DNA of 64,000 bases from Desulfobacterales bacterium (GCA_034003325.1 JAVEYW010000006.1:4362-68361); one strand, 5' to 3'. Counted from the stretch's first letter, positions 5,748 through 63,258 are shown. The notes: generated by a model not told the origin, from the sequence alone. A program made the numbers and translations.

Positions 5748-5822
5748 TCTTTTATCAGAAACATAACCGAAAAAGCATGCCTGATTATACAGGAAGATTA
5801 TACAGGAAGCCTTGCCAACAAG
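5748..5822 (+). repeat. Degenerate relic of the intergenic repeat family (B-like), containing a 13-bp tandem duplication
   Basis: CTTTTATCAGAAACATAACCGAAAAAGCATGCC matches the 5' module (CCCTTTATCAGAAACATGTACGAAAAAGCGTG) of the copies at 53148 and 63153. GATTATACAGGAA is repeated perfectly at 5783-5795 and 5796-5808. The 3' hairpin module is absent. Confidence 0.55.
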
Positions 5823-5960
5823 TTTCTTTCCTTGTATAAACTCCGATTTATAAGCATAGTCTCGGTTGCTAACAGCCCGCTGATAACGGCCCGAACTTAC
5901 CGAGCGGTGAAGCGAAATGACGAAAAAAACCATTTCCCCGGAAAGAAAAAGGAGCGAATT

Positions 5961-6620
5961 ATGAAAGATGGAGAAAAAGGAGCGATTTTACAACGGGACA
6001 AGGAGACCTTTGCCGTTGCCCCTCATATTCCCTGTGGTGTGTTGATGCCGGCACAGATGCGCAACATTGCGGATGTGGCGGAGAAATACGGCGCTGCGGC
6101 CTTGAAAATCACCAGCGCTGCGCGGATCGCCATGGTGGGCATCAAAGGAGCGGATATTGATGCGGTGTGGAAAGATCTCGGCATTACTCCGGGACACGCG
6201 GTCGGTCTGTGCGTTCGCAGCATCAAGGCTTGTCCCGGCACCGCGTTTTGCCGTTTGGCCAAGCAGGACAGCTTGGGCATGGGTATGAAACTGGACGCAA
6301 AATATCACGGGGTGGAATTGCCCAGCAAAACCAAAATAGGCGTCAGTGGTTGCGCCAATCAATGTGCGGAAACCTGTATCAAGGACATCGGCTTGGTGGG
6401 TTCGAAAAACGGATGGAAGGTATTGGTGGGCGGTTGTGGAGCTTCCACGCCCAGATTGGCGGATACCCTGACCGAAAGCCTCAGCGATGAGGCGGCCCTT
6501 TTGCTGATTGATAAGGTCGTGGCCTATTATCGAGAAAACGGCAAGAAGCTCGAGCGGATTGGAAAAATGATTGACCGGGTAGGATTTGACGCCTTTAAGT
6601 CGGCGGTTTTGGGCGAATGA
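5961..6620 (+). CDS. Small nitrite/sulfite reductase-type siroheme/[4Fe-4S] protein (like low-molecular-weight assimilatory-type sulfite reductase)
   Basis: ATG 5961 has AAGGAG 6 nt upstream (MKDGEKGAILQRDKETF..). Cysteine pattern CPGTAFC ... GCANQCAETC matches the siroheme-[4Fe-4S] motif. About 219 aa. The track ORF start at 5832 is an upstream extension without an SD. Confidence 0.7.
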   Translation: MKDGEKGAILQRDKETFAVAPHIPCGVLMPAQMRNIADVAEKYGAAALKITSAARIAMVGIKGADIDAVWKDLGITPGHAVGLCVRSIKACPGTAFCRLAKQDSLGMGMKLDAKYHGVELPSKTKIGVSGCANQCAETCIKDIGLVGSKNGWKVLVGGCGASTPRLADTLTESLSDEAALLLIDKVVAYYRENGKKLERIGKMIDRVGFDAFKSAVLGE

Positions 6621-6701
6621 TATTTTTTCCGTTCAACGCGTTTTTTTAGACCGAATATCATTTCAGTGATTTTAATTCCCGGCGAATTCCATCATTATCT
6701 T

Positions 6702-6725
6702 CCGGCAGCAATCTCTTGCTGCCGG
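6702..6725 (+). other. Perfect stem-loop (10-bp stem, 4-nt loop) downstream of the sulfite-reductase-like gene
   Basis: CCGGCAGCAA-TCTC-TTGCTGCCGG. No U-tract follows, so terminator function is uncertain. Confidence 0.4.
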
Positions 6726-7041
6726 GAAAATTCGTTCTCTTGCGGAAATTCTAATGCTGATCTGTTAAAAGTTTCTCCTCGCGCCCGGCCATTATATTCA
6801 AAATGATAAAAACAACTTTCGCTGATGGTGCAGCAGCTTGAAATGATAACCTTTTTTCGTTATGAGCCAAATTGTCGCTTGACATCGGTTGATCGGGTTG
6901 CTAAACGATAAACGATATCAATTGATTTAAACTATCGTTTAGGTTCATTGCTGAAAAGATACATGCCAAAACCCGAATGTTCATATTTGAACGGTAAAGT
7001 TTTTTTTTGCTTTAAGCCTTATCGCCTTCTATCTTTCAATT

Positions 7042-7164
7042 TCCGGCGAAGCCGGATTTGGCCCTTTACCAGAAACATGCACGCATTTGCGTGTATATTC
7101 GCCGAACCTGAAAGATGGCTTTTATGCATCCCAGCATTCCAGCATCCGGCTTTGCCGGATTAGA
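7042..7164 (+). repeat. Intergenic repeat, subtype A, preceded by an extra H2-type hairpin
   Basis: CCGGCGAAGCCGGATTTGG followed by CCCTTTACCAGAAACATGCACGCATTTGCGTGTATATTCGCCGAACCTGAAAGATGGCTTTTATGCATCCCAGCATTCCAGCATCCGGCTTTGCCGGATTAG. About 90 percent identical to the copies at 25187, 37806 and 58524 (rc). Confidence 0.9.
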
Positions 7165-7177
7165 ATGGAGTCTCCGA

Positions 7178-7624
7178 ATGGCAGACCCGAAGGACAGAAT
7201 GGCTTCGATTCTCGAAAAGCTAAAAAAAACCGATCACAAGCGCACACCCCAACGGCTGGCGGTTGTCAAAATTCTGGCCGGCAGCAAAGGCCATCCGAGT
7301 GTCGAGCAGATTTATGAGCAACTGAAAGTCGATTTTCCGACCATGAGCCTGGCCACGGTTTATCGCAATGTCATGCTGGTAAAGTCTCTTGAGGAGGTGC
7401 TAGAGTTGGGCTTTCCGGATGGAAGCAATCGCTACGACGGCAACAAGCCCTATCCCCACCCTCATGTGATTTGTGTTCAATGCAAAAAGATTATTGATCC
7501 GGATCTGGACAGCCTTAACGATATGGCCCGGGAAGTCGCCCGGGAAACCGGTTTTCAAATTTTGACCCATCGACTTGATTTTTTTGGCATTTGTCCGGAA
7601 TGCCGGCATAAGGCCAAACCCTAA
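7178..7624 (+). CDS. perR: Fur-family metalloregulator, PerR-like by context
   Basis: ATG 7178 with GGAG at 7167-7170. Two CxxC pairs (CVQCKK, CPECRH) and a winged-helix N-terminal region typical of Fur/PerR. Located immediately upstream of catalase. The track start at 7115 lies inside the repeat element. Confidence 0.8.
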   Translation: MADPKDRMASILEKLKKTDHKRTPQRLAVVKILAGSKGHPSVEQIYEQLKVDFPTMSLATVYRNVMLVKSLEEVLELGFPDGSNRYDGNKPYPHPHVICVQCKKIIDPDLDSLNDMAREVARETGFQILTHRLDFFGICPECRHKAKP

Positions 7625-7653
7625 ATGAACCTTAAACCTAAAAGGAGGGCACC

Positions 7654-9114
7654 ATGAGTGATAAGAAAAAGTTGACAAACAACGCCGGCGCGCCGGTCAT
7701 GGACAACCAGAATGTCATGACCGCCGGTCCGCGCGGTCCCCAGCTTCTACAGGACGTTTGGTTCCTGGAAAAACTCGCTCACTTTGATCGTGAGGTGATC
7801 CCTGAGCGCCGGATGCACGCCAAAGGCTCTGGCGCCTACGGTACCTTTACGGTCACGCATGATATCACTCGCTATACCCGTGCGAAAATATTTTCCGCGG
7901 TGGGGAAAAAGACCGACCTTTTCGCTCGGTTTTCCACTGTGGCTGGTGAGCGGGGTGCCGCGGACGCCGAGCGCGATATTCGGGGCTTTGCCATCAAGTT
8001 TTACACCGAGGAGGGCAACTGGGATCTGGTGGGCAACAACACGCCCGTTTTCTTTTTGCGTGACCCCTTGAAGTTTCCGGATCTGAACCATGCCGTTAAG
8101 CGTGATCCGCGCACCAACCTGCGCAGCGCTAAAAACAACTGGGACTTCTGGACCTCCCTGCCCGAGGCCCTGCATCAGGTGACCGTGGTCATGAGCGACC
8201 GTGGCATTCCGGCAAGCTACCGCAACATGCACGGTTTCGGTAGCCACACCTTCAGCTTCATCAACGCCAAAAATGAGCGATACTGGTGCAAGTTCCACTT
8301 TCGCACCCAACAGGGCATCAAAAATCTCACCGATGCTGAGGCTGAGGCTGTAGTCGGCAAATGCCGTGAAAGCCATCAACGCGACCTTTATAATACCATA
8401 GAGAAGGGCGATTTTCCGCGCTGGACCCTGTTCGTCCAGATCATGACAGAGGAGCAGGCTGTTAAACTTCCCTACAATCCGTTTGATTTGACCAAAGTTT
8501 GGTACAAAAAGGATTATCCCCTTATCGAGGTGGGGGTCATGGAACTCAACAAAAATCCGGAAAATTACTTTGCCGAGGTGGAGCAGGCGGCCTTCAATCC
8601 GGCCAATGTGGTGCCGGGCATTAGCTTTTCACCCGACAAGATGCTCCAGGGCAGACTCTTCTCCTATGGTGATGCTCAGCGTTACCGGTTAGGGGTCAAC
8701 CATCACCTCATCCCGGTGAATAAGGCCCGCTGCCCCTTTCACAGTTTTCACCGCGACGGCCAGATGCGGGTGGACGGCAACTACGGCTCGACTCTCGCCT
8801 ATGAACCCAACAGTTATGGTGAGTGGCAGGAACAGCCCGATTTCTCCGAGCCGCCTCTGGCACTGAGCGGAGCTGCGGCTCGCTGGAATGCCCGCGAAGA
8901 TGACAGCGATTACTATACCCAGCCGGGCAAGCTCTTTCGCCAGATGAGCAAGGAGCAACAGGAGGCCCTGTTCGGCAACACCGCCCGCGCGATGGGGGAT
9001 GCGCCGGAAATGATCAAGATTCGCCACATCGGGAACTGCCTGAAGGCAGACCCGGCCTACGGTGAAGGCGTGGCGAAGGCCTTGGGTATTTCGCTGAGCA
9101 ACGTGCCGAAATAA
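7654..9114 (+). CDS. katA: Monofunctional heme catalase
   Basis: AAGGAGG upstream. N-terminal ..[59 protein letters not shown].. is canonical catalase sequence. 486 aa. Confidence 0.95.
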
Positions 9115-9132
9115 ATAACGGTCAGCCAACAA

Positions 9133-9172
9133 CCGGTTCAGCGGACGGTGCAGCGGATTGCCGCTGAACCGG
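9133..9172 (+). terminator. Strong stem-loop after katA (possible terminator or attenuator, no U-tract)
   Basis: A 12-bp perfect inverted repeat, CCGGTTCAGCGG (9133-9144) and CCGCTGAACCGG (9161-9172). Confidence 0.4.
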
Positions 9173-9211
9173 AATGACAGGCAATCGTTCAAAAAATGAC
9201 GGGGTTAACTC

Positions 9212-9559
9212 ATGAAAAAATTCGTCCTGTTTGTCTTCAATGGAGATCCCATGTGCTTTATCCATGTGCTGTTGAACGCATTGGACATGAAAGCCAAAGG
9301 ACATGAAACGAAACTCATCATGGAAGGGGCTTCGGTCAAACTGATTCCTGAACTGGTGAAACCCGGAAACCCCTTAACTGGATTGTGGAAAAAAAATTTG
9401 GAGGCGGGGCTTGTTGAAGGCGTTTGTAAAGCCTGCTCAAATAAACTGGGAACCCTTGAGGCTGCCAAAGCGCAGGGACTGCCCCTTCTGGATGACATGT
9501 CCGGTCATCCCGGCATGGCCGCTTATCGGGATAACGGATACGAAATCATCACCTTTTGA
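9212..9559 (+). CDS. Small DsrE/DsrF-like-fold protein (conserved hypothetical)
   Basis: 115 aa. The MKKFVLFVFNGDP.. beta-strand start and ..GVCKACSNKLG.. resemble DsrE/TusD-like small proteins. Family assignment rests on recollection only. Confidence 0.5.
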   Translation: MKKFVLFVFNGDPMCFIHVLLNALDMKAKGHETKLIMEGASVKLIPELVKPGNPLTGLWKKNLEAGLVEGVCKACSNKLGTLEAAKAQGLPLLDDMSGHPGMAAYRDNGYEIITF

Positions 9560-9580
9560 TTCGGAGTGAGGAGAATAGAC

Positions 9581-9883
9581 ATGCCGGAGTTTGGAACACC
9601 TTTTTCAGGATTGGCAAAGGACAGGAAGCTGACGAATGAAGAGCTTATCAGAGCTATTCGATTCATGGTGGCGGCAGAGTATGAAGCAATTCAATTGTAC
9701 ATGCAACTTGCGGAGTCTACAGACAACAAGCTGGCCATCGAAGTGCTTAAGGATATTGCCGATGAAGAACGCGTTCACGCGGGGGAGTTTTTGCGATTGC
9801 TCCGTGAACTATCCCCCGATGAAGAAAAGTTCTATGCGGAGGGGGAAAAAGAAGTAGAAGAAGAGATCGCGAAAATGAAGTAG
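9581..9883 (+). CDS. Half-ferritin / rubrerythrin-superfamily two-helix protein (EncFtn/Flp-like)
   Basis: ATG 9581 with GAGGAG at 9568-9573. Di-iron-type motifs AAEYEAIQLY and DEERVHAGEF (ExxH). About 100 aa. No C-terminal encapsulin-targeting peptide recognised. Confidence 0.6.
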   Translation: MPEFGTPFSGLAKDRKLTNEELIRAIRFMVAAEYEAIQLYMQLAESTDNKLAIEVLKDIADEERVHAGEFLRLLRELSPDEEKFYAEGEKEVEEEIAKMK

Positions 9884-9916
9884 CAAGTACGAAAGTATCA
9901 TCGTGCCATAAACCCG

Positions 9917-11548
9917 GTGCCGGCAGCGGCTGATAAGCGCGCCGGCGCCGTGAGGTCAGGTATTCAGATGAAAGCGGTGTACGGCATCAACACGAATTCA
10001 AAAATTGACGACAATCAAGACGCCCTGGCAGCCATGCTTGAGTGCATTCCTATTTTAGAAAAAATTGCGGAACAATCCGAACTGTTAGCGCTCTTGCCGG
10101 AATCCGAGCGGATTGCGCTGATCACCGCGGCCGGGAAAATATCCCGGCCCGACCGCAAGGAGATCAAAAAGCGGAATAAAGACAGAAAACATCAGCAGCG
10201 TCTGGTGGTTGTGGAAAAAGAACGCGGGCTAAGGGCGGCCACCGGGATTCGAAAGGCCAGGGAAGCCGCGGTCTTTACCGCCCCCCTGCGAATTTCGGTG
10301 TCCGATAGGGAAGCTGAAAAGGAAGGTGCCGCACGAACGCTGGAAACGCCGCGAAACTGTTATGTGTGCAAGGCCGAGTTTACGAGGCTTCATCATTTTT
10401 ATGATGCCATGTGTCCGGAATGCGCCCAATTCAATTATCGGAAGCGTTTTCAGACCGCTTCCCTGAAGGGGCGGGTGGCCCTGATCACGGGCTCCCGGCT
10501 CAAGATCGGCTACCAGGCCACGTTGATGATGCTTCGGGCCGGGGCAACCGTGATTGCCACCACCCGCTTTCCAAAGGATTCGGCGTTGCGATTTTCCGGA
10601 GAAGCGGATTTTTCCGACTGGGGCAACCGGCTTCATATTTACGGGCTGGATCTTCGCCACACGCCCAGTGTGGAACTTTTTACGGATTACTTCAGAGAAA
10701 CCTACCAGCGCCTGGATATACTCATCAACAACGCCGCGCAGACGGTTCGCAGGCCGCCGGGATTCTATGCCCATCTGATGGAAAATGAAAATAGGGGGCT
10801 GGCCGAATTGCCAATGAATGCCCAAGCCCTTTTGCGTCATTACCAGTCTTGCATTTCTCAGCTTGAATTCGGGCAAACGGAGCATGTGGGCCGGGAAAAG
10901 GCGCTGCCTGTTACCTGGAACGGAACCGCCCCGGGCGTGGGGTTGCGCATGTCCGCGCGACTCTCTCAGATTCCCTATTCTTATGACCATTCCCTGAATG
11001 TGCCGGAGGTTTTTCCGGCGGAAAAACTCGATGCCGATCTTCAGCAAGTGGATCTTCGAAAGACCAATTCCTGGCGGCTGCGGCTGGGGGAGATACCGAC
11101 CGCGGAAATGCTGGAAATTCAACTGGTCAACTCCGTGGCGCCCTTTGTTTTGTGCAACCGGCTGGCCGATCTGATGAAGCGGGATTACACCGGGGAAAAA
11201 CATATTGTAAATGTTTCAGCCATGGAGGGCAAATTTCTGCGGTTTAAAAAGGGCAGCCGCCACCCTCATACCAATATGGCTAAGGCGGCTCTGAACATGC
11301 TGACCCATACCGCGGCCGAGGATTTGGCCAAATACGGGATTTTCATGAATGCCGTTGACACCGGCTGGGTCACGGATGAAGATCCAGCCATTCTGGCCAA
11401 GCACAAGCAGGATTGCCATGATTTTCAGCCTCCCCTGGATATTGTGGACGGCGCTGCAAGAGTCTGTGATCCTTTCTTCCATGGCATTCTGACGGGAAAA
11501 CACTGGCAGGGTAAATTTTTGAAAGATTACTTTCCCATCGACTGGTAG
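9917..11548 (+). CDS. SDR-family oxidoreductase with about 190-aa N-terminal extension containing a CxxC..CxxC zinc-ribbon
   Basis: Rossmann motif [22 protein letters not shown], and [22 protein letters not shown] upstream of the SDR core. Start is uncertain (GTG 9917 or ATG 9967). Confidence 0.8.
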
Positions 11549-11604
11549 ACCCGCCAGGGCAATCGCATGTCATGTTATCATTTGGAGCTCTTTAAATTTA
11601 TTTT

Positions 11605-12177
11605 TCAGCTTTTGGCCCGAGACATGAACTGGCCTGTTTCCGTGTTCACCCGAATCACCTCGCCGACTGCCATATAATCGGGCACCAGCACGGTAACCCC
11701 ATTGGAAAGTTCCGCAGGTTTATTGCGGTTCGTGGCGGAGGCGCCTTTGATGGTCGGCGCCGTGTTCACAATTTCAAGGTCGATGGCTTGAGGCAGTTCA
11801 ATACACAGGGGGTGGCCTTCGCGCAGCAGCACCGTAATCCCTTCCAACCCCTCCACCAGCCACTGACGCTGCCCTTCGAGGTTATCCGCCGACAGGGTGT
11901 ATTGTTCATAATTCTCGCTATCCATGAACGTATGCATATTCTGATCACGGTAGAGATAACTTACCTTCCGCCTGTCCACCGTCATCTCTTCTAGCGAATC
12001 GCCACTCTTGAAGGTTTGGTCTAGTTTCTGGCCGGTGATCAGCGACGCGAACCGTACCTTGCACAAGGTGTTGCCCCCCCTTGCCGTAGGGGTGTGAATA
12101 TCGATTTGTTTGACCTGATAGGGCTGCTCGTCAATGTTGATGATATGTCCTTTTTTAAGATTTCCGGCTTTTAGCAA
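11605..12177 (-). CDS. yeiP: Elongation factor P-like protein YeiP/EfpL
   Basis: TTG start with AGGAG 8 nt upstream. EF-P three-domain length (190 aa). Loop ..HTPTARGGNTLCKVRF.. carries Arg where EF-P has the modified Lys, as in YeiP. Confidence 0.85.
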   Translation of the reverse strand: MLKAGNLKKGHIINIDEQPYQVKQIDIHTPTARGGNTLCKVRFASLITGQKLDQTFKSGDSLEEMTVDRRKVSYLYRDQNMHTFMDSENYEQYTLSADNLEGQRQWLVEGLEGITVLLREGHPLCIELPQAIDLEIVNTAPTIKGASATNRNKPAELSNGVTVLVPDYMAVGEVIRVNTETGQFMSRAKS

Positions 12178-24351: not shown

Positions 24352-25098
24352 GATTTTTCCCTTTGACTGAGCAATTGTAACGGTTATGGTCGCGGCCTGG
24401 TTTTTAAGGCCTTTTTTGGTTTCTACCTCACCCGCAAAGCAAGACACATGCCAATTTTGCAACTAATTGTATTATATTGTAATTAATGTAAAAGCCCCTT
24501 ATTTACGAACTCCGGGTTCCGGTTTCTTCATTTGCCTGTTTATGAGGCATGCGCGAGGGCGATATGCTGATCGGTCCGGTCAGAGGGTCGAAAGCGCCTA
24601 TTCAATAGGGCGTTAACGCAAGAAGATGATATAAAACGGCTTGTTGGATCGAACCTGTCTCCATAAGGCCAATGAATGCGTTTGTTTATTGATAGTTGAG
24701 GGGCTGATAAGCCCAAACGAAATTCCTGGGGACATCCCATCAGGGCCATTTCGTGCTCACCGGCCGAATTGGGTCTTTGGAAAATCGGAATATTGGGGGC
24801 TTTTTAAGAGTCAACCCATTTAAATTAAATGATATTGTTTGTTACAGAACATAGAGTTCCGCTTATGGCTGGTTTGCGGATAAAACGGAACTGTCATATC
24901 TTTTTTAATCGGTATCGGTGCGGCGGAAGAATATCAACGCACAATTGTTTTTTTGATAGCATTTCCAATGGGATGTTGTCCCCATCACCATGCGGAGCAT
25001 TGAGAATAAGCGATTTTTGCTTTGATGCGGGTAGCCGGAATGTGCTGGACGAGGCCCTAAGGGCGCGGTGAGCGAATTCATTTTCCGGACTTTTGGTG

Positions 25099-25190
25099 GT
25101 AGCCTTTGGCACGAAAGAGCGTATATCACTGGAGAAGGTCGGTGGCTGCCAAGCAGTCCAGCCGCCCAGCTTAAGGCCTTGCCGGGTTAG
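25099..25190 (+). repeat. Intergenic repeat, subtype B, 5'-truncated
   Basis: TAGCCTTTGGCACGAAAGAGCGTATATCACTGGAGAAGGTCGGTGGCTGCCAAGCAGTCCAGCCGCCCAGCTTAAGGCCTTGCCGGGTTAG aligns to the B copies at 53148 and 63153. It lacks ATCAGAAACAT. Confidence 0.8.
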
Positions 25191-25295
25191 GCCCTTTACC
25201 AGAAACAGGCACGCTTTTGCGTGTATATTTGCCGAAGGTGAAAGATGGCTTGTATGCATCCCAGCATCCCAGCATCCGGCTTTGCCGGATTAGGC
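25187..25295 (+). repeat. Intergenic repeat, subtype A, head-to-tail with the preceding B copy
   Basis: TTAGGCCCTTTACCAGAAACAGGCACGCTTTTGCGTGTATATTTGCCGAAGGTGAAAGATGGCTTGTATGCATCCCAGCATCCCAGCATCCGGCTTTGCCGGATTAGGC. Confidence 0.9.
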
Positions 25296-32060: not shown

Positions 32061-32075
32061 AGTGCGAAGTACCTT

Positions 32076-32187
32076 CTAATCCGGCAAAGCCGGATGCTGG
32101 GATGCCGGGAGGCTGGGATGCATGAAAGCCATCTTTTGCCTTCAGCGCATATACACTTAAAAGCGTGCATGTTTCTGATTAAGGGGT
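32076..32187 (-). repeat. Intergenic repeat, subtype A, inverted orientation, inside the liv operon
   Basis: Reverse complement reads CCCCTTAATCAGAAACATGCACGCTTTTAAGTGTATATGCGCTGAAGGCAAAAGATGGCTTTCATGCATCCCAGCCTCCCGGCATCCCAGCATCCGGCTTTGCCGGATTAG. Confidence 0.9.
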
Positions 32188-32196
32188 TTATACCCT

Positions 32197-37805: not shown

Positions 37806-37929
37806 TAAGGCCCTTTATCAGAAACATGCACGCTTTAGCGTGTATATTCGCCGAAGGTGAAAGATGGCTTTTATGCATCCCAGCATTCCAGCATCCCAGC
37901 ATCCCAGCTCCCGGCCTTGCCGGGTTAGG
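37806..37929 (+). repeat. Intergenic repeat, subtype A, longest copy (5 octamer units)
   Basis: TAAGGCCCTTTATCAGAAACATGCACGCTTTAGCGTGTATATTCGCCGAAGGTGAAAGATGGCTTTTATGCATCCCAGCATTCCAGCATCCCAGCATCCCAGCTCCCGGCCTTGCCGGGTTAGG. Confidence 0.9.
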
Positions 37930-42558: not shown

Positions 42559-42833
42559 TTCATCATGCTTCCGCTTTTCGCCGGTCCGGCTGCGGACGCG
42601 GCTGTCAACGCGGGAAGATGCGGAATGTTCCCGCCGGTATCAAGCTATAAAAGCTGAAATAACTATAAAAAAAATATGTTTATCAATGACTATATATGTA
42701 ATAAATAAATTTTAACTAACTGTTATAATAGTTAATTTAACTATTATTGCGAATTTGTGTTGACATGGCGGTTTTTAACTGTAATAGATGAAATAACTAT
42801 ATTTCAAAATATAGAGCAAAGGAGCCCGCTCCC

Positions 42834-53147: not shown

Positions 53148-53261
53148 TTAGGCCCTTTATCATAAACATGCACGAAAAAGCGTGTATCATTGGAGAAGGT
53201 TGTTAGCTGCCAAGCATCCCAGCATCCCAGCCGCCCAGCTTCCGGCTTTGCCAGATTAGGC
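53148..53261 (+). repeat. Intergenic repeat, subtype B
   Basis: TTAGGCCCTTTATCATAAACATGCACGAAAAAGCGTGTATCATTGGAGAAGGTTGTTAGCTGCCAAGCATCCCAGCATCCCAGCCGCCCAGCTTCCGGCTTTGCCAGATTAGGC. Confidence 0.9.
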
Positions 53262-54907: not shown

Positions 54908-57096
54908 ACGGTTCCCTCTTTTGCTTTATCAATAAACTGATAGTGATCGATCGCCTCTAAAATGCCCCCGGCGCATTCTGCCGTCGCAAAATAGACGTGT
55001 TTGGCCCCTTTGAGTTTTGCAAGTTCAGGGCTGTAATTTCCGACAACTACCGCCAGCGGATCGCCTCTGAGCATTTCTTCATCGTTTCCCGAATCCCCAC
55101 AAACCAAAATATTGGTGAGCGGAATTTCCCATTGATAGGATAGATAGCGAATCGCTTTTCCCTTTGAAGCGCGGTAGGGAAGAATGTCCAGATATCGATT
55201 ATGGGAATAAATCAGATAATAGCGGCACCTGTTATTCAACAGTGTGTTATGAATGCTTGCCACGCGGTCTTTTCCCGGATCCATGTTATAGCTGATCTTG
55301 AAGTTGCGTTGTGCCGATTCTTCCTGGTATTCAAGAAAATCGTATTTTTCAAGCAGGCGCACGATTTTTCCCCGGTCCCATTTGTCGGAAATATGGGTTT
55401 CCCACCCCTTGCCGTAATGCAATTCTTTGCCGAAATAAATTTCAGTGCCCACCGATGAGATGATGATATCGGGTTCCGGCACGCCGTGTCTTTTGAGAAA
55501 TGAGGCGGCTGAGTCGACCGTTTGTCCCGTGGCGACGGCAAAGCCGATTGTTTTTTTATTCTCTTCCATCAAAGCCAGCAGCGCGGCCAATTGATCATTA
55601 TTGCTTCCGATCAAGGTGTTGTCGATATCGGTGATGAGAAAATAATTGAGGCTGGCCAATCGACGTCCGATGGTGACGGGCGGTTCGGCGTGCTTGAGTT
55701 CACTGGTTGTTTCATCGGGCCTAAGCTGTTGCAGGGCGTTGGTGTATTCGTCGGCATGATGATGCCAAGTGTAGTGCTTTCGAACATTTAAAATGCCATT
55801 TTTTGAAAACCGATCCCAGGTTTCGCTGCTGGAGATAATGCTTTTAATTGCTTGTGACAGCGCTTTTGTATCCGAAGGATCGATTAAGATGCCGTTTTTA
55901 CAGTTTTCTATAATATCTTTGGGTCCCCCATCGTTGGTGGCGACGATGGGCGCGCCGGTGGCAGAGGCTTCCAGCAGGGTCAAGCCGAAGGGCTCTGTCA
56001 ACGCCGGGTTGACGAAAACCCCTTTTTTCCCGGCAACAATGCGGTACATTCCGGGCACTTCGTGTTCAAAGTCATGCTTCTTGGGAATGGCCATTTTCCC
56101 GTACAGGTCGTATTTGTCCATGAGCAGCAGCATTTCTGTCAAAACACCGCGCTCATTGTCTTCCATCTGGGTAATATCTTTTCTGATGCCGGCAAAAACC
56201 GCCAGGTTGGCCATGGCCTGAAGTTCCGAATCCTCCCCGTACGCTTTGATAAGCCCCCGTATATTTTTCCGTTTATCCGGTCTGCAAAGGCTGAGAATGA
56301 TCGGTTTGTCCGGATGAAGAAAAAACCGATTCAATTCGTTGAGCACGGATGCATGGGCATAGGCGGCTTGTTCATCTTTCCCGTTGGTTGGTAAAAAATC
56401 ATGATAATAAGGGTAAAATTTTTCAAGATCCAATCCCGGCGGAATCACTTTGTAGGTGGGCAGATCCTTGTTTCTGTACAAACCGTATTGCTTCTCAATT
56501 TCCTGCCGGGTACTGGTAATAATTAAATCGGCATATCGCAGGGCGTCTTCTTCGGCATAAATGCGCCGGTCTATTTTATACTTTTTGTTGATGTCCTCCT
56601 CGCTCATGCCGTCATTCAGCAGCTTTTCTTTTTTCACGCGCCCCATGGAATGGCCGGTGTAAACAAGCGGAACACCGAATATTCTTGCCAATTCCATGGC
56701 AACATAACCGCCATCGGGATAATGCCCGTGAACCACATCCGGAAGGCGGGATTCGCGCTTGATGAATCGGACGGTTTTGTCGATATATTCATCCAGGTGC
56801 GGCCATAATAATTCCTTCCGAATGTATTTTGTGCCGCCGCTACGAATTCGAACGATGCGGAATTTTTCGTTTACCACTTCGATAGGGCGCGAATAGTCTT
56901 CCGATACCGCTTTATCGGCGATCCATCGGGTAAACAGATCCACGCGATCAACCAACGCGTGTTGTGAAAGATGGCTACAAAGTTCAATGACATATTTAAT
57001 TTGACCGCCTGTATCGGCATCTCTCCCCAGTTCCATGTGGTGCGCCCGAATGAGCCCGTGAATACTGAACATCTGTATATAAAACTTATTTTTCAA
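54904..57096 (-). CDS. sps: Sucrose-phosphate synthase (GT4) fused to an SPP-like HAD-IIB domain
   Basis: ..SIHGLIRAHHMELGRDADTGGQIKYV.. SPS N-terminus. GT4 ..EPFGLTLLEA... C-terminal HAD ..FLITDIDNTL..CGDSGNDEEM... TTG 57096 (GGGGAG 8 nt upstream) overlaps the fruK stop (TTGA). ATG 57072 is an alternative. Confidence 0.85.
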   Translation of the reverse strand: MKNKFYIQMFSIHGLIRAHHMELGRDADTGGQIKYVIELCSHLSQHALVDRVDLFTRWIADKAVSEDYSRPIEVVNEKFRIVRIRSGGTKYIRKELLWPHLDEYIDKTVRFIKRESRLPDVVHGHYPDGGYVAMELARIFGVPLVYTGHSMGRVKKEKLLNDGMSEEDINKKYKIDRRIYAEEDALRYADLIITSTRQEIEKQYGLYRNKDLPTYKVIPPGLDLEKFYPYYHDFLPTNGKDEQAAYAHASVLNELNRFFLHPDKPIILSLCRPDKRKNIRGLIKAYGEDSELQAMANLAVFAGIRKDITQMEDNERGVLTEMLLLMDKYDLYGKMAIPKKHDFEHEVPGMYRIVAGKKGVFVNPALTEPFGLTLLEASATGAPIVATNDGGPKDIIENCKNGILIDPSDTKALSQAIKSIISSSETWDRFSKNGILNVRKHYTWHHHADEYTNALQQLRPDETTSELKHAEPPVTIGRRLASLNYFLITDIDNTLIGSNNDQLAALLALMEENKKTIGFAVATGQTVDSAASFLKRHGVPEPDIIISSVGTEIYFGKELHYGKGWETHISDKWDRGKIVRLLEKYDFLEYQEESAQRNFKISYNMDPGKDRVASIHNTLLNNRCRYYLIYSHNRYLDILPYRASKGKAIRYLSYQWEIPLTNILVCGDSGNDEEMLRGDPLAVVVGNYSPELAKLKGAKHVYFATAECAGGILEAIDHYQFIDKAKEGTV

Positions 57097-57998
57097 CGGA
57101 TTGTCTCCCCAAATTGTGCCCGAAATTCCGCATACATGTGCCCGGCTGCCGGAAAGGCGCCTTTTACACTGCAGATATGTGCTGAAAAGCGATTGGCGTG
57201 TATTAGTATTTTCTCCGGCGGCCATCCCGAAAGAACGCCTGCGGCCAATACGGCGCTGTAAGCATCTCCGGCGCCAACCGTGTCGGCAACGGCGACTGCT
57301 GGGGGTGCGGCAATTTCATGTCGTTGTGTTTCGGTGTATAAAGCGCTGCCGGCAGCGCCGCGAGTAACGGCCACGATGTTGATATTGAAACGCGCCATCA
57401 GCGCGGCGACGGTTTCCGGTTCATTGACATGACGAAGACGCAGATGCGCCGCAGTGATTTCAAGTTCCTCTTCATTCAGTTTTAAAATATCCGCATGGGG
57501 AAGCGATTTGATGATAATATGGGGTTGCGCGCATCCGGGGCGAAGATTCATATCATAAAGGCATAGGGTGTCCGGATGCTTTTGCGACAAAATTCGTTGA
57601 AGCGTGTCAAATCCATTGCGGGTTCTTTGCATCAGAGAACCGAAATAGATCATTCGGGGCGGCAGATGAAGCACTTCGGTTATGGTTTTATCCAATGTGA
57701 AAAAATCATACGCTGCATTTTCAATAATAACAAACCGCGGGTTTCCCTGATCCGTCAACTGTACCTCGACACGGCCCGTCGGCCGCTGACTGTCGATTTG
57801 AAGGTCCTCGGGGTTCAGGCCGGAAGCGCTTGCAAGCGCGCGAATTTCCCGGCCGAAGGCGTCTTTGCCGATGCGTGAAAAAAATCGCACCGGAAATTCA
57901 AATTGCTTGAGATGATAAGCAAAGTTGAATGGTGCCCCCCCGATTCTTTGATAATCCGGGAACACATCGACTAATATTTCTCCAATGGAAATTATCAT
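57093..57998 (-). CDS. PfkB-family sugar kinase (fructokinase-like)
   Basis: MIISIGEILVDVF..GGAPFNFAYH.. and ..DTVGAGDAYSAV.. motifs. 301 aa. Confidence 0.8.
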   Translation of the reverse strand: MIISIGEILVDVFPDYQRIGGAPFNFAYHLKQFEFPVRFFSRIGKDAFGREIRALASASGLNPEDLQIDSQRPTGRVEVQLTDQGNPRFVIIENAAYDFFTLDKTITEVLHLPPRMIYFGSLMQRTRNGFDTLQRILSQKHPDTLCLYDMNLRPGCAQPHIIIKSLPHADILKLNEEELEITAAHLRLRHVNEPETVAALMARFNINIVAVTRGAAGSALYTETQRHEIAAPPAVAVADTVGAGDAYSAVLAAGVLSGWPPEKILIHANRFSAHICSVKGAFPAAGHMYAEFRAQFGETIR

Positions 57999-58523
57999 TT
58001 AATGGGCGCTACTATAAAAAATATATTATTGAAACAAAATGTTGTAACTGTTTGCAGCACAATTTGCCCCCATTCACAGACAAGAAGCGTTCAACATGAC
58101 CGATTCCGGAAATGCGGCAATGTCGCTTGGGAAGGATGTGCGGTGACCGCCGAGTTATTTCCGGTTTCTTTACGGACAGCACGAGAAAGCAGTTTTCATC
58201 CGTCGGAAGTGTTTTTCCGAGGTATCAATGCAATAGACTATCAAAAAGAAAACAATATGTGGTCTGTAATTTGCAAAATGATGCGATAAATCAATTCATA
58301 CGGGTTTATCTGCTATTCCCGCCGCTGGTGCCTCTTAAAGCATCCATGGCAATATTCGAATTTGCGTTTACGCTAATTTTGTTATTCGTAACATGTGGAG
58401 CCTGTCACGTCAAATTTTAATTCCTCTCTTTTCGGAACAAGTACATCGCTCTTCGCAGGTTGTGACACAGCAAAAGGGAAAGCTGCTTTCAGCCATGTTG
58501 CACTCAAAAGACCCAAGCAAAAA

Positions 58524-58632
58524 GGCCTAATCCGGCAAAGCCGAATGCTGGGATGCTGGGATGCATAAAAGTCATTTTCACCATCGGCGAACATACACGC
58601 AAAGGCGTGCATGTTTCTGGTAAAGGGCCTAA
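58524..58632 (-). repeat. Intergenic repeat, subtype A, inverted orientation
   Basis: Reverse complement reads TTAGGCCCTTTACCAGAAACATGCACGCCTTTGCGTGTATGTTCGCCGATGGTGAAAATGACTTTTATGCATCCCAGCATCCCAGCATTCGGCTTTGCCGGATTAGGC. Confidence 0.9.
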
Positions 58633-58827
58633 TAAAACGAATAGTTCCGCTTTGGGTTTGGGAAACGTAACATTCGAAATCCGCACTGGAGACAATGCTC
58701 CCGTGGTCATTGCTATTCGATCATGAGGTTTTGGAATCCGGTTTAATCCTTTTGGTTTAGAAAGCAAAATTATGAACCGTTTGTTTCTTTTGCTTGCAAT
58801 TGTAAAATGGGATTTTCAACGAACAGC

Positions 58828-59787
58828 TTAACGAAAGGCGCCGGTTTGATAAAGCTTCCAAAACATATAACAGAGTCCTAAAAGGGGAGTTCGTCGCAAA
58901 TGCGCCGGGATCTCAACCGAAATTCCCGAATGGCGTTTTATTTTCCACAGGACATACTCTATGCCGCCTTTGAAGGTTAAAAGAGCCTTTAACAGACGCA
59001 ACAGGGAGAGCAGTTTGCCGTGGATAAACCTTAGTTGCCATGCCAATCGATTGATCCATCGTATTCGGGGGGGGATTTGCGCTTGCCAGTGGCAGGCAGC
59101 ATCGCGGGCAACCATGTTAACGGCATACGGAAATGCTTTTACCACGATTCTGGTCAGTTGCTCGTAATATGGCGAGTGCCGTTCGAACAAACGCACCAGT
59201 TTTTCCGGACGCTCAGCACGCAATTCAGCGCGATAGCTTAACGACAGCCCCCGACACCACAACATGCGCGCGTCAAATTGCGCCGGCATGTTCGGCAGGG
59301 CGCGGGTTACCAGCGTGATGACCGCTTGGGAAAAGGCGGTGTATATTCGGTCGGCAACCGACTCATCGCGACAAAATACAATTCCGGTGGGCTGGGCGAA
59401 TCTGCCCCACAAATAGGAATGGAACCAGCCTGTCGAGGTTCCCTGTTGAAAATCCGCCAGAGAGACAATGGCGTATTTGGCGCGTATGACGCTGTTTTCA
59501 CCATTGGCTTCCATATAAAAGACATTCGGCGGCAACAACTGATTTAGCATCCCATGCAGCGGGTTGCGATAGGCATGGCGGTAGCTGTCCACCAACAAAT
59601 AGAGATCCACCAAACCGTCATTGGCATCTTGATTTCGCAAACATGAGCCGTAAACCAAAATAGCCTGAACGGCGTTTCCGTACCGGGCCAATAAGGTATC
59701 GCGAAGGATGTCGATGCCGGGCAGAACCATTTTCGAGGTTTGGTTACGGATCAATGCCTTGAGCTGCGGGAAGATTTCCATAGTCAC
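58828..59787 (-). CDS. Tam41/Mmp37-like nucleotidyltransferase (candidate CDP-diacylglycerol synthase type)
   Basis: ..ILVYGSCLRNQ..GLVDLYLLVD..NVFYMEANGENSVIRAKYAIVSLADF..YLWGRFAQP.. parallels the Tam41 pattern YGSG..iDli..V..vyfn..vKYGVVS..YLAGRLqKP. 319 aa. ATGA overlap with the upstream gene. Confidence 0.65.
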   Translation of the reverse strand: MTMEIFPQLKALIRNQTSKMVLPGIDILRDTLLARYGNAVQAILVYGSCLRNQDANDGLVDLYLLVDSYRHAYRNPLHGMLNQLLPPNVFYMEANGENSVIRAKYAIVSLADFQQGTSTGWFHSYLWGRFAQPTGIVFCRDESVADRIYTAFSQAVITLVTRALPNMPAQFDARMLWCRGLSLSYRAELRAERPEKLVRLFERHSPYYEQLTRIVVKAFPYAVNMVARDAACHWQAQIPPRIRWINRLAWQLRFIHGKLLSLLRLLKALLTFKGGIEYVLWKIKRHSGISVEIPAHLRRTPLLGLCYMFWKLYQTGAFR

Positions 59788-60833
59788 CCTATGAGAAATG
59801 ATGCGGGGGCGCCGTTGGTTATGACGACGTGCTGCCCCGACGATGAAGGCGGATGCAATTGCCCATCCAACGCGAATCCACCGGAGATTTGCAAACGCAC
59901 CTCATTGGCGTTATGGCTGAAATAACCGTATTCCGGTTTTCGGTAGCGAGAGGCTTTGCCAAAGGCCAATAACGAAAAAACTTGTGCCATATGTTCCGGC
60001 CGATCATGGATCAAGGTGACGTGCAGGGGCGCTTTCTCCACTCCCCAGAAAGGCCGCAACCCGAAAAACAGGCGGTCAACCGTCGTGATCAATACCATCA
60101 GAAAATCATTCTTCAGGTTCAATCCCTGATCCGTGCGAATCGATATGGGAACGGCCTGCCGATAAGTAGCCTCTCCGCGGATAACACCCAGCACATATCT
60201 TGCGGCTGTCAACCCGGGCGCCCATTCACCCCCTACCCCCTTTGCATGAAGATTTCGATGACAAAACTCACTGGCCTCATAAATAACGGCTGCGCCAAAA
60301 ATCATTCCGTACAGCGGATAATCGAGGGCAGGCACGTCCGCTTTCATAACCGTCCGCTGAACCATACGCCATGGCCCCTCTCTTTTGCTCACCCAATTGA
60401 GCAATCTGGTTAACGCCTGATCGCGTGCGCCCCTGAGCCCTGAATCTCGGGCGATGATACTGTCGGTTCCCCCACGCAACAAGGCTAACAGCGGTATGTT
60501 TTTGAATGGTTTCCAGAAAAACATGGCGGTAAGAACGGTTTGAACGGTTCCGTCTCCACCGTTAATCACCACGAGGTTAATGCCATTACGCGCAAATTCT
60601 TTTAAAGCCGTTAGGGTATCGGTCACCGTCGTTGCCTCGAGATGCAGTACCTGCGGATGACGGCTTATTATTTTGTTAACTTCCCGCAGCCCCTTTTTGT
60701 TGCCGCCGCTGGATGGGTTGCTGATGACACCGGCTCGCAACGGTATATTCGGAGATAACTTAAAAGCGTTGTATCCCGAATCCTCAGGCTTGAAGGTTGC
60801 TGAGGAACGAGAATATTCCCCTGTTTTATTCAA
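59784..60833 (-). CDS. Diacylglycerol-kinase-catalytic-domain (DAGK_cat / YegS-BmrU-like) lipid kinase
   Basis: TTG start with AAAGGGG upstream. ..GVISNPSSGGNKKG.. and ..VVINGGDGTVQTVL.. motifs. Confidence 0.75.
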   Translation of the reverse strand: MNKTGEYSRSSATFKPEDSGYNAFKLSPNIPLRAGVISNPSSGGNKKGLREVNKIISRHPQVLHLEATTVTDTLTALKEFARNGINLVVINGGDGTVQTVLTAMFFWKPFKNIPLLALLRGGTDSIIARDSGLRGARDQALTRLLNWVSKREGPWRMVQRTVMKADVPALDYPLYGMIFGAAVIYEASEFCHRNLHAKGVGGEWAPGLTAARYVLGVIRGEATYRQAVPISIRTDQGLNLKNDFLMVLITTVDRLFFGLRPFWGVEKAPLHVTLIHDRPEHMAQVFSLLAFGKASRYRKPEYGYFSHNANEVRLQISGGFALDGQLHPPSSSGQHVVITNGAPASFLIG

Positions 60834-60851
60834 AAATACCCCTTTTGCCCA

Positions 60852-62057
60852 TCAATCACTTGATGGCTGTGTAAATAATCGAACCGCAAGAGATTGATCA
60901 TACAAGGACGGGGGGATATTTGCCAGCCAGGACGCGAGCTGGCCCCGGCTGCTTTTTTCGTAACTGGCCCATGCCAGCCGCGTCAAAAGAAAAACGCTCG
61001 TCGCCACCGTCCAAAAAGCAACCGCCACCAGCCCGAGATCCGGGCGCCCCATGATGAAGCATCCCGTCAATAACATCATGTTCGGGTTGCGTCTCGCCGT
61101 AATTAGCCTGAAATAGGAATCCACCGGGCGCCAGCAAAAAATGCCGAATTTCCCCAGGCGCCATTTAAAGGCGCCTTCGGTTAATCGGCCGGCAATATAC
61201 CCGGTCACAATCAGCCATAAAGCAGTATGTACCGAAATTCCAAACCCATTCAGGTGAGACGTTTTTAGGCCGATGCCCCACAGAATATACCAGATCGGCG
61301 GGTGAAAGAGATCCGTCAGGTGGTCAAAATAGTGTCCAAAGCGGCTCGACGTGACGGTTACCCTCGCCAATTTTCCATCCACGGTATCCAAAAAGGTCAT
61401 CAGCCATCCCGTCAACAATCCCCAGCCGAAATGACCCATGGCAAACAATATTCCGGAGAGTATGACCAGCAACAGGCCTGTCAGCGTTACCAGGTTCGGC
61501 CGAATTCCGTAACGAACACACTGACCGACCATCCATTGCGCCGGAATGGGCCAAACCCATTTGGTAACCAAATCCGTGACGCCTTTATAAGACCAACGGA
61601 AAAGCCGCTGTTCCAGCTTCCGCTGGTATTCCAGCGAAATCGGCAAAACAAAGGGGGGCTCCGACTTTTTTAAGCTTTGGTGTAATGAGATCGGCAAGGT
61701 TTCCAACGTCAAGGGCTGAACACCAGGCAGCGATGCCGCCATCATAGGGTTTTCGATCACTTGAATGGCTTGTTGCGCCAATTCGGCAGACACATGCGCG
61801 GCAACGGTTACCCCTGTCCGGTTTTGTGTTAGTTGCAGAACAATGCCCGGTGTTACGGCCAGGTAATTGACCAAGCGGTCATCAAACAAATAGTCGGTTC
61901 GTAAAATTAAAACGGAGTCGTTGTCATGCAAGGCGCTCAGGTCATCTATAATCATACCGACACCCGCAGCCTTTAATACGCGTTCGATGCGCTGGGACGA
62001 CGTAAGCCCCCAAATTTTAACCGGGCTTTTTTGAACGAAATAGACGCATAATGGCAT
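60852..62057 (-). CDS. CDP-alcohol phosphatidyltransferase with about 150-aa N-terminal soluble domain (degenerate nucleotidyltransferase-like)
   Basis: Signature DTVDGKLARVTVTSSRFGHYFDHLTDLF (D-x2-DG-x2-AR...G-x3-D-x3-D). Multiple TM helices. The N-terminal ..IWGLTSSQRIERVLKAAG.. resembles the NTP-transferase fold but lacks a G-x-G-x-R loop. Confidence 0.8.
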   Translation of the reverse strand: MPLCVYFVQKSPVKIWGLTSSQRIERVLKAAGVGMIIDDLSALHDNDSVLILRTDYLFDDRLVNYLAVTPGIVLQLTQNRTGVTVAAHVSAELAQQAIQVIENPMMAASLPGVQPLTLETLPISLHQSLKKSEPPFVLPISLEYQRKLEQRLFRWSYKGVTDLVTKWVWPIPAQWMVGQCVRYGIRPNLVTLTGLLLVILSGILFAMGHFGWGLLTGWLMTFLDTVDGKLARVTVTSSRFGHYFDHLTDLFHPPIWYILWGIGLKTSHLNGFGISVHTALWLIVTGYIAGRLTEGAFKWRLGKFGIFCWRPVDSYFRLITARRNPNMMLLTGCFIMGRPDLGLVAVAFWTVATSVFLLTRLAWASYEKSSRGQLASWLANIPPSLYDQSLAVRLFTQPSSD

Positions 62058-62121
62058 AGCGGTTCCTTTAATAGCGGAAATACGTTTTGCAAAACCAGCT
62101 TATTTTCCTTATAGAGGCACG

Positions 62122-63156
62122 ATGGTGTTTATCCCCTCTGATAAAACAAGTGCCGGTGACGGGAATTCTCAAGCGGATAGGGTTCCAGGCGAAGGGCGCA
62201 CATTTTCACTGGCTCATTTTTCCGACTTGCATATCACCTGCACGGACCGAATTGAACTCCATCACCTCATGAATAAGCGGCTTTTTGGCTACCTGCGATG
62301 GAAATTGCATCGGGGAGCGAAGTATCAGGATGAAATTCTTACCATCCTCAAAAAAGACTTGCAACAGATGAAGCCGAATCATGTTTTAATTACGGGTGAT
62401 TTGACCCATCTGAGCCTTCCCGCGGAATTTGAAAAAGTAGAAAAGTGGCTGCAATCCCTTAGCACACCGGCTCAAGTTACCGTCATTCCCGGTAATCATG
62501 ACGCCTATGTTCGAACCGATTGGCATCAAACTTTTTCCGGCTGGTTAAGCTATATGATTTCCGACACAGCGTATCAAACACACGAATCGGTGAACGGACT
62601 TGACGATGTGTTCCCCATCCTGCGGGTACGCGGCGATATCGCTTTAATCGGTGTGTGTACGGCGTATCCCTGTGCCCCGCATCTGGCGACCGGCCGAATG
62701 GGCGTCCCCCAATTGAAGAAATTGGAAAAAATCCTGAAACAGGCGGCTGCTCAGAACCTTTTCCGCATTATAGCGATTCACCATCCCCCCATTACCGGAA
62801 TGATCAGCAGGCGTAAACGCTTAACCGATGCATCCGCGTTACGAAGGCTTCTTGCATCTTACGGAGCGGAGCTTGTGCTGCATGGCCATACGCACGCAAC
62901 CGCCTATCATACCTTGCCAACCCCCGCTGGCGTTATCCCTGTTGTGGGCGTACCGGCGGCATCGTCATCGGACGACACCGGTAGCCGGGGCGCCCGTTAC
63001 AATGTTTATCAGGTTTCGCCCTCGGGGGACGGGTGGCGCATCAGCATTTCGGCGCGTGTTTATTCAAAAAAAGATCGCTGCTTTGTTCCGGAAAAAAACC
63101 GGTGGGTAAGCATTCCCGCTTCGGCTGATGAATATCGTTGCCCGGAAGGTTCTTAG
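62122..63156 (+). CDS. Calcineurin-like metallophosphoesterase
   Basis: Motifs HFSDLH, GDLTH, GNHD, HHPP and GHTH in canonical order. 344 aa. Confidence 0.85.
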   Translation: MVFIPSDKTSAGDGNSQADRVPGEGRTFSLAHFSDLHITCTDRIELHHLMNKRLFGYLRWKLHRGAKYQDEILTILKKDLQQMKPNHVLITGDLTHLSLPAEFEKVEKWLQSLSTPAQVTVIPGNHDAYVRTDWHQTFSGWLSYMISDTAYQTHESVNGLDDVFPILRVRGDIALIGVCTAYPCAPHLATGRMGVPQLKKLEKILKQAAAQNLFRIIAIHHPPITGMISRRKRLTDASALRRLLASYGAELVLHGHTHATAYHTLPTPAGVIPVVGVPAASSSDDTGSRGARYNVYQVSPSGDGWRISISARVYSKKDRCFVPEKNRWVSIPASADEYRCPEGS

Positions 63157-63258
63157 GCCCTTTATCAGAAACATGTACGAAAAAGCGTGTATTCTTGGAG
63201 AAGGTTGTTATCTGCCAAGCATCCCAGCCGCCCAGCTTCCGGCTTTGCCGGTTTAGGG
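63153..63258 (+). repeat. Intergenic repeat, subtype B, filling a convergent intergenic gap
   Basis: TTAGGCCCTTTATCAGAAACATGTACGAAAAAGCGTGTATTCTTGGAGAAGGTTGTTATCTGCCAAGCATCCCAGCCGCCCAGCTTCCGGCTTTGCCGGTTTAGGG. Confidence 0.9.

Follow-up and report, generated by a model that had tools for sequence, protein, structure and literature searches.

What kind of element is repeated between the genes of a Desulfobacterales bacterium, and how does it come to stand there so often? The question is raised by a 64,000-nt stretch (GCA_034003325.1 JAVEYW010000006.1:4362-68361), here called the window as a whole, with all strands given relative to it. A preliminary description, made from the sequence alone, had noticed in it a dense family of modular intergenic repeats. 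Our analysis indicates that these copies belong to a new, unnamed family of small non-autonomous elements, most likely of the single-strand kind represented by the IS200/IS605 insertion sequences (IS), the palindrome-associated transposable elements (PATEs) and repetitive extragenic palindromes (REPs). That the family is selfish mobile DNA we consider very probable. The narrower reading, that the copies are mobile DNA without an open reading frame (ORF), derived from or mimicking the ends of an IS200/IS605-type "peel-and-paste" transposon and thus PATE-like, is the one that we favor, tentatively and with slightly less than half of our confidence.

A dense family of modular repeats

The family claimed in the window is real, as several lines of evidence agree. 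Its 27-nt 5' motif had 6 matches at no more than one mismatch, compared with 0 in 100 shuffles, and all copies listed earlier were recovered by repeat finding and alignment. Moreover, a profile hidden Markov model (HMM) made from the copies found eight of them in the window, seven with E values of 1e-24 to 1e-36 (7058–7163(+), 25188–25294(+), 32076–32186(−), 37807–37929(+), 53149–53260(+), 58526–58631(−) and 63154–63257(+)) and a degenerate eighth at 25109–25191(+) with E=2e-08. The five-part architecture (a 5' motif, a hairpin H1, a subtype-specific core, a tract of tandem GCWTCCCA octamers, and a hairpin H2 with its terminal motif), the two subtypes seen in the window and the intergenic placement had all been described correctly. 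The octamer tract itself is likewise present; the three to five units ascribed to it include partial ones, and two full octamers are usual in 108-nt copies.

A pattern for the left end matched only 2 of 185,579 representative genomes, which means that this set does not include the source species. The same scan of metagenomes gave 43 contigs, 42 of which come from the JGI metagenome Ga0265295 and from the same population. From those contigs 47 distinct full-length copies were obtained, at different loci in one population, which holds at least that many. They fall into three subtypes, namely A and B as already described and a new subtype C, with the core TTCACC-GAA-GGTGGG and the right end GCAATCCGGCYTCGCCGG. 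The mean pairwise identity within a subtype is 92% for A, 77% for B and 90% for C. Element lengths cluster at 100, 108, 116 and 124 nt, in steps of 8 nt, because the number of internal GCWTCCCA octamers varies. With 1 copy per 8 kb in the window, and if about this density holds generally, the family may make up roughly 1–1.5% of the genome.

The same insertions are found at the same sites on contigs of three other samples. Contigs often break at the copies, and the metagenome assemblies of this organism are visibly fragmented, with contigs of several samples ending there; a model of the family would improve the annotation and binning of related Desulfobacterota metagenome-assembled genomes (MAGs). 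Empty sites were sought in other samples by way of the flanking proteins and none was found, all samples being filled. In the nearest relative the element is absent from the syntenic locus, and at 71% protein identity this relative is too distant for a comparison of the empty site at the level of bases. The best named homologues of one flanking protein belong to the deltaproteobacterium NaphS2 and the Olavius Delta-1 symbiont. Since the nearest homologue of all reaches 71%, the host is an uncultured Desulfobacterota-like lineage without close sequenced relatives. The contig from which the window is taken measures 274,560 nt.

The element had not been recognized as a named one, and this also held in our searches. 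It was matched neither in a blastn comparison with plasmids and phages nor when viral contigs were scanned by pattern, and no part of the window matched Rfam at gathering thresholds (the best value for one copy was E=5.2, and the related elements of the two matched genomes, L001 and L002, had none). A search of the literature for the literal sequence, for a TTAG target motif and for repeats in sulfate reducers gave nothing matching.

Borders, target motif and tandem dimers

At the left border of the 47 copies, random flanking sequence gives way to T41 T41 A39 G40 and a purine (G31/A13), followed by CCCTTTAYCAGAAAC. On the right, GCCGG-A/G is followed by T47 T43 A46 G44 and again a purine (G38/A8), after which the sequence is random. 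Repeat finding and alignments bear out the earlier statement that the ends of this one modular family are direct and not inverted. The fifth base of TTAGR shows no correlation between the two ends. Among the 39 solo copies, deviations from TTAG number 22 on the left and 7 on the right (Fisher p=0.0055), and where the left border departs from the consensus (CTAG, ATAG, TCAG, TAAG), the right one never shows the same variant. This asymmetry and the unmirrored deviations fit a left motif that comes from the target and a right motif that is encoded by the element, rather than a target-site duplication, and they favor insertion 3' of TTAG without duplication.

TTAG at both ends is also what a classical MITE (a miniature transposable element with inverted repeats) of the DDE type would show, if it duplicated a fixed TTAG target and were mobilised, for example, by an IS5-group transposase. 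Transposases of this group prefer YTAR targets, which TTAG fits, and the size and the intergenic position of the copies are typical of such elements. However, terminal inverted repeats were found neither by repeat finding and alignments nor by comparing the ends by eye under several assumed borders, and none appear under any assumed length of duplication. The unmirrored variants, at a left border three times more variable than the right one, do not suit a duplication either, and other YTAR targets are unused. We give this explanation a very low probability, in line with the earlier view that the family does not look like a classical MITE.

Copies in tandem share exactly one TTAGR. This is the case for the dimer at 25187 in the window, for those on contigs L007, L043, L047 and L049, and for the remnant before 7057; the dimers are head-to-tail, not inverted. 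A single core common to both members, directly repeated at the two ends of an element, would also agree with a site-specific recombinase (tyrosine, serine or DEDD/IS110-like) that used TTAGG as its crossover core and excised and integrated the copies in the manner of miniature cassettes, and TTAGGC indeed fits the TTRRRY core of integrons. Yet there is no inverse core (RYYYAAC), no inverted binding sites lie beside the core, and no recombinase gene is found nearby. In addition, 38 of the 47 copies have A directly before the right TTAG, where integrons have G, and at the fifth core position the two ends show no covariation. A recombinase is in our opinion highly improbable, and the integron attC site or gene cassette was rejected for want of the inverse core.

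The stop codon of a flanking gene is overlapped by 1–5 nt in about 10 of 50 copies. Because the element ends in the motif beside which it inserts, and TTAG contains TAG while its complement CTAA contains TAA, the stop is restored on either side. The two overlaps reported earlier for the window are real. First, the TAG stop at 63154–63156 of a metallophosphatase gene (62122–63156) falls within the left TTAG of the 63153 copy. Second, the TAA stop of a minus-strand DUF2284 gene (25290–25292) is provided by the right TTAG of the 25187 copy.

Three further observations concern the ends. TTAG is scarce in the window: the two strands together have 103 occurrences, 13 of them within the repeats, where base composition would lead one to expect about 440; general avoidance of TAG and selection against the target of the element are candidate causes. 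On two contigs (L014:1060-1110 and L031:40-110, on the element's sense strand), nested truncated 5' fragments (TTAGGCCCTTTCGA...) lie directly before a full left end, an arrangement suggestive of insertions that were repeated, or of abortive events, at one and the same TTAG. Finally, the left TTAG is followed by 14 nt (GGCCCTTTACCAGA) that are similar to the right hairpin (CCGGCTTTGCCGGA) in direct orientation, with 8 of 14 positions identical and 2 transitions. This likeness is present in all copies, e.g. 25191–25204 and 25276–25289 in the window, and to judge from it the left end may derive from a duplicated right-end unit.

Hairpins, guide-like tetranucleotide and candidate enzymes

The hairpins differ between the two strands. 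On the sense strand, H1 folds into an 8-bp stem (ATGCACGC/GCGTGTAT, one G.T pair included), compared with only 5 bp on the opposite strand. H2 has a 7-bp stem (ATCCGGC/GCCGGAT). Subtypes A and C have, after H1 and on the sense strand only, a further small hairpin, H3 (TTCGCC-GAA-GGTGAA, one G.T pair). H1 and H2 were predicted in every copy folded. In an alignment of 40 copies, 93% of the cells pair, compared with 28–47% when the partners are slid, and derived wobble pairs occupy 35 cells on the sense strand against 10 on the other, although such cells are not independent events. By this modelling, the predicted hairpins are real and strand-asymmetric.

Two substitutions that leave a pair possible only as G-U, one in H1 of the 63153 copy and one in H2 of the 58524 copy, had been read as a weak hint of selection on a transcript. 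Both are present, but the hint itself is not supported. No measure of covariation in the 40-copy alignment rose above shuffled controls, with one pair only changed on both sides, and the orientation of the copies is unrelated to that of the genes. The copies are too recently related for a test of selection on structure, and, by analogy, an IS200/IS605-type element, in which a single DNA strand is active, would be just as likely to show G-T-only pairs. A structured RNA family, consisting of small RNAs or of cis-acting modules in 3' or 5' untranslated regions, whose hairpins are selected and whose DNA copies are secondary, would account for the better pairing of the sense strand, for the tolerated G-U pairs and for several copies that abut stop codons or sit just upstream of start codons. 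Against it stand, besides the covariation result, the orientations of the upstream and downstream genes relative to the element (12 opposite/opposite, 9 same/same, 9 same/opposite and 8 opposite/same) and one copy lying antisense within an operon, between two permease genes. Moreover, the element contains no promoter-like site and no terminator with a T-run, Rfam gave no match, the octamer count varies freely, and the relative lacks the element at its syntenic site. An RNA family is accordingly given a very low probability.

Other roles on the level of transcript or product were considered and rejected. A scan for a promoter or terminator gave no promoter and only a marginal terminator-like site on the minus strand. 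The 108-nt copies carry a frame of 28 codons (7077–7163(+) in the window), with its ATG within H1 and its end exactly at the terminal TAG; the 8-nt length steps break this frame in other variants, and it is probably coincidental. A scaffold of omega-RNA was rejected on judgement, the element being too short and its length too variable.

The left end invites comparison with IS608, where cleavage on the left takes place at TTAC, 19 nt 5' of the foot of the hairpin, and the guide AAAG is found directly 5' of that foot (PMC3201880). The guide and site pairs of IS608 are GL AAAG with CL TTAC and GR GAAT with CR TCAA, where A+16 pairs with T-3 and A+17 with T-4 (PMC5934647). With c for the site and g for the guide, we derived from them the rule c1:g2, c2:g1, c3.g3 = A.A and c4:g4. 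The first two pairings are stated in PMC5934647, and the last two we infer by analogy, both site/guide pairs of IS608 fitting them. In the present family, TTAG lies 16 nt 5' of the foot of H1 and AAAC stands at the foot, and all four positions fit the rule, with a compensatory change from C:G to G:C at the fourth position relative to IS608. AAAC is as conserved as the hairpin itself (46–47 of 47 copies) and is found in L001 and L002 as well. A small second hairpin after the left one, comparable to H3, is reported for IS608 (PMC5934647). Published work documents that ORF-less PATEs are mobilised in trans, that motifs and guides covary, and that the distance between the two is flexible (PMC10055086), and the left and right hairpins of real IS605 elements can differ strongly (PMC7290912).

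Under the PATE-like reading, a Y1 HUH transposase encoded elsewhere in the genome would act on one DNA strand, the sense strand of the element, and bind the subterminal hairpins H1 (ATGCACGC-TTTT-GCGTGTAT) and H2 (ATCCGGC-TTT-GCCGGAT). The left cleavage or target site TTAG would be chosen by pairing with the AAAC immediately 5' of the H1 foot, and the element would be excised as a single-stranded circle and re-inserted 3' of another TTAG. Each insertion would re-create the target at the right end and so give rise to head-to-tail dimers sharing one TTAG. An insertion at the TTAG of a stop codon (TAG, or TAA on the other strand) would restore the stop, so that copies could accumulate at gene ends and inside operons. 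The internal GCWTCCCA tract would grow and shrink by replication slippage. Of all this, the architecture, the target motif, the unequal ends, the dimers and the length steps have been shown, whereas the enzyme, the single-stranded intermediate and the pairing of the guide are inferred. With regard to the strand, 32 of 50 copies have their sense strand on the G-rich one (p=0.065), a weak trend; in the window the orientations are split 6 to 2 and the GC skew is positive. If the pairing of TTAG and AAAC is real, the family is a natural peel-and-paste element whose terminal motif equals its target, which would explain both the dimers and the undamaging seat of copies on stop codons and in operons, and it would offer a natural data point for the guide-directed retargeting of IS200/IS605 transposases.

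Several points weigh against this reading. Neither the window nor the 274 kb of DNA examined contains a gene for a Y1 transposase, a REP-associated tyrosine transposase (RAYT) or TnpB, as judged by Pfam, by regular expressions for HUH motifs and by phmmer with sequences of IS608 TnpA and E. coli RayT, of which the motif and phmmer probes are a lead and not a rigorous test. For the window, the earlier statement that no transposase or RAYT gene is present was thus upheld and extended to TnpB. No full-length element with these ends, from which the copies could derive, was found in any collection scanned (genomes, metagenomes, plasmids, phages and viral contigs). The right end breaks the rule, as the bases 5' of H2 (GCAT, AGCA or CAGC, according to the placement of the foot) do not predict TTAG and differ among subtypes A, B and C while TTAG is constant. 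The sequences of H1 and H2 differ, whereas the hairpins of IS608 are similar. The match of a four-base guide could be chance, with an estimate of roughly 1–10% depending on the foot positions and strands allowed. Among 12 pairs of neighbors that share a contig, 8 have opposite orientations and 4 the same one; any bias toward a replication strand is weak. Lastly, an empty site has one TTAG under either model of insertion and does not by itself tell a target-site duplication from insertion without one.

The enzyme may also be sought elsewhere among the Y1 proteins, and one that is RAYT-like or atypical remains a close variant of the main hypothesis (PMC6006769). A related explanation is an element resembling REPs or bacterial interspersed mosaic elements (BIMEs), kept by a domesticated single-copy Y1 enzyme (RAYT-like TnpA-REP or "class 3" Y1), whose units of tetranucleotide plus hairpin are cleaved and copied; the host may have put some of the copies to its own use, for instance in mRNA stability or protein binding. 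With such elements the family shares its density (1 copy per 8 kb in the window), its strictly extragenic position, a mosaic modular build that recalls BIMEs, an enzyme unlinked to most copies (here no linked transposase was seen) and a tetranucleotide at the hairpin foot, i.e. AAAC with H1 on the sense strand and CTAA, 1 nt and H2 on the other. Atypical Y1 classes with feet other than GTAG and with hundreds of copies have also been described (PMC6006769). REPs and their inverted doublets (REPINs), however, are characterized by GTAG or GTGG at 0–2 nt 5' of a hairpin of 7–20 bp and by units of 21–65 nt, often in inverted pairs (PMC6006769). The copies here have no GTAG or GTGG foot; they measure 100–124 nt and contain two unlike hairpins about 60 nt apart rather than a single palindrome or an inverted REPIN pair, their dimers are direct, and no RAYT gene was seen. 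We regard a REP/BIME-like element as unlikely, and the GTAG-type REP or REPIN was rejected on its feet, unit length and direct dimers; the preliminary description, too, had held that the family does not look like a classical REP.

The PATE-like reading can be further judged by comparison with known systems. Ends that are direct, hairpins near them and a constant tetranucleotide at the flank together characterize the IS200/IS605 family and its ORF-less derivatives, a likeness that the preliminary description had missed. PATEs are ORF-less derivatives of IS200/IS605 elements, known for example from Haloquadratum, Geobacillus stearothermophilus and Halanaerobium. The family resembles them in having no ORF, no inverted terminal repeats, asymmetric ends and subterminal hairpins, in the fixed short motif that flanks the left end and the short motif that closes the right end, in the guide-like tetranucleotide at the left hairpin foot, complementary to the target by the IS608 rule, and in presumed mobilisation in trans. 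It differs in that no parent IS or TnpA was found, that the flanking and terminal motifs are identical (TTAG) and lead to head-to-tail dimers, that a right-end guide is unrecognisable, and that it has an internal 8-nt microsatellite, a very high copy density and a length of 100–124 nt, compared with about 271 nt for one PATE (PMC7290912). With IS608 and ISDra2 it shares a left cleavage or target tetranucleotide 16–19 nt 5' of a subterminal hairpin, a guide at the foot of this hairpin (TTAC/AAAG in IS608 and TTAG/AAAC in the present family), a further small hairpin after the left one and an implied activity on one strand. In those elements, by contrast, tnpA is present and tnpB often too, the left hairpin is like the right one, and the right end is read by a separate guide and closes with another motif than the left; their orientation is reported to be markedly biased with respect to the lagging strand. 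BOX elements of Streptococcus pneumoniae are also modular and intergenic, with fixed end modules and an internal module in variable tandem number, a plan that recurs here. Their boxA and boxC ends, however, are partly inverted, the repeated module is about 45 nt long and not 8 nt, they have no TTAG borders, and there is no sequence relationship. Noteworthy traits of the present family are that the flanking motif is also the terminal motif, that there is an internal 8-nt microsatellite, and that the left-end module is common to several phyla.

The last of these traits was seen in the two matches among representative genomes, a Kiritimatiellaeota MAG (L001) and a Thermodesulfobacteriota MAG (L002); the accessions of the two MAGs are VSJD01 and JAYEJK01. 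Each contains once, at L001:500-660 (−) and L002:2629-2770 (−), the left-end module TAG-nn-CCTTTRYCAKAAAC with the hairpin ATGCACGC/GCGTGTAT. The likeness extends past the bases of the search pattern (about 11 of 13–14 extra bases, nhmmer E about 1e-7), and both elements stand directly after a stop codon. Their core is unlike that of the window family, about 100 nt, ending in a GGGCATA(G/A)CCCACC hairpin, and the two are alike along their whole length. In L002 both ends fit the rule, the left one with AAAC/TTAG and the right one with TAAC at the foot of GGTGGGC-ATA-GCCCACC, where TAAG, lying 13–16 nt 3' of the hairpin, matches the TAAC guide. The occurrence of the left-end module (CCTTTRYCAKAAAC plus the hairpin) in three phyla may be the sign of a superfamily of single-strand elements without an ORF that spreads horizontally and has not been described so far, and it hints at a conserved trans-acting enzyme as a candidate. 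In the window family one DNA guide, AAAC, would then serve both ends, TTAG being the flanking and the terminal motif; if this is true, an insertion would be seamless and self-targeting and would restore stop codons. Another possibility is an enzyme that moves the elements but has so far not been connected with ends of this sort. This combined proposal, of a cross-phylum superfamily with one AAAC guide for both ends or with an enzyme new to such ends, we consider distinctly unlikely.

Individual copies and other features of the window

The copies lie among ordinary housekeeping genes of an anaerobe. By Pfam, the flanking genes include those for methylene-tetrahydrofolate reductase, a formate-dehydrogenase-like protein and NADH-oxidoreductase subunits, and further neighbors encode a Liv-type ABC transporter, Rho, EF-P and a Fur-family regulator with catalase and rubrerythrin.

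From the left, the first trace of the family is a decayed relic at 5748..5822 (+), of which the earlier claim held in part. Its left-end module (about 5751–5779) is clearly homologous, with 25 of 29 positions matching subtype B, while the remainder is not convincing and the profile HMM is not significant (E=2.7). In its interior, where the core of the family would be, a 13-nt tandem duplication (5783–5808(+)) has GATTATACAGGAA twice, and a possible remnant of the right end, GCCTTGCC, follows 3' of it on the same strand. The next copy, of subtype A and 108 nt long, had been correctly noticed and placed too far upstream, at 7042; its true start is 7057, and it occupies 7057..7164 (+), directly upstream of the Fur-family regulator, catalase and rubrerythrin cluster. 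The preceding bases, 7043..7061 (+), form an orphan right-end hairpin, CCGGC-GAA-GCCGG with ATTTGG, that lies in a weak profile match (7011–7060). Judged from its sequence, this hairpin is the remnant of a lost upstream tandem partner, and its TTTGG is the left border of the next copy.

The tandem dimer consists of a degenerate subtype B copy with an eroded left end (25099..25191 (+)), for which one profile search gave E=8e-08, and a subtype A copy (25187..25294 (+)), with TTAGG at 25187–25191 common to both members. The second member displays all the parts of the element, namely the left TTAG at 25187–25190, the guide-like AAAC at 25203–25206, H1 at 25207–25226, H3 at 25228–25242, the octamers at 25256–25271, H2 at 25274–25290 and the right TTAG at 25290–25293. 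Before the dimer, about 620 nt (24463–25086) hold no convincing ORF and no Rfam match, extending from a lysine-2,3-aminomutase-like gene to the first member.

A subtype A copy of 116 nt (32075..32190 (−)) lies between two branched-chain amino-acid permease genes, antisense to their operon. It occupies the entire 136-nt gap (32061–32196) between these livH/livM-like ABC permease genes, and the same arrangement is found in three other samples. Another copy of subtype A (37806..37929 (+), 124 nt) has four full octamers, with AAAC at 37822–37825, H1 at 37826–37845 and a compensated C-G pair in H2 (CCCGGC/GCCGGG). About 20 nt separate a subtype B copy at 53148..53260 (+) from the ribosome-binding site and start of a minus-strand gene, upstream of which the copy lies. 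The remaining copies are one of subtype A and 107 nt at 58526..58632 (−), with a T.G pair in H2 (TCGGC/GCCGG), and one of subtype B at 63153..63257 (+), with a T.G pair in H1.

Two other direct repeats were observed in the window. One is of 102 nt (917–1018 and 1187–1288, 94% identical, with a spacing of 270 nt) and lies within a long minus-strand ORF (2–1624) that runs off the window and has no Pfam match; it is probably an internal protein repeat of 90 residues. The other is of 33 nt (42635–42667 and 42769–42801, 79% identical, 134 nt apart, ending GAAATAACTATA) and is intergenic, between a PAS histidine kinase gene and a response-regulator gene, where it may represent candidate paired regulator-binding sites.

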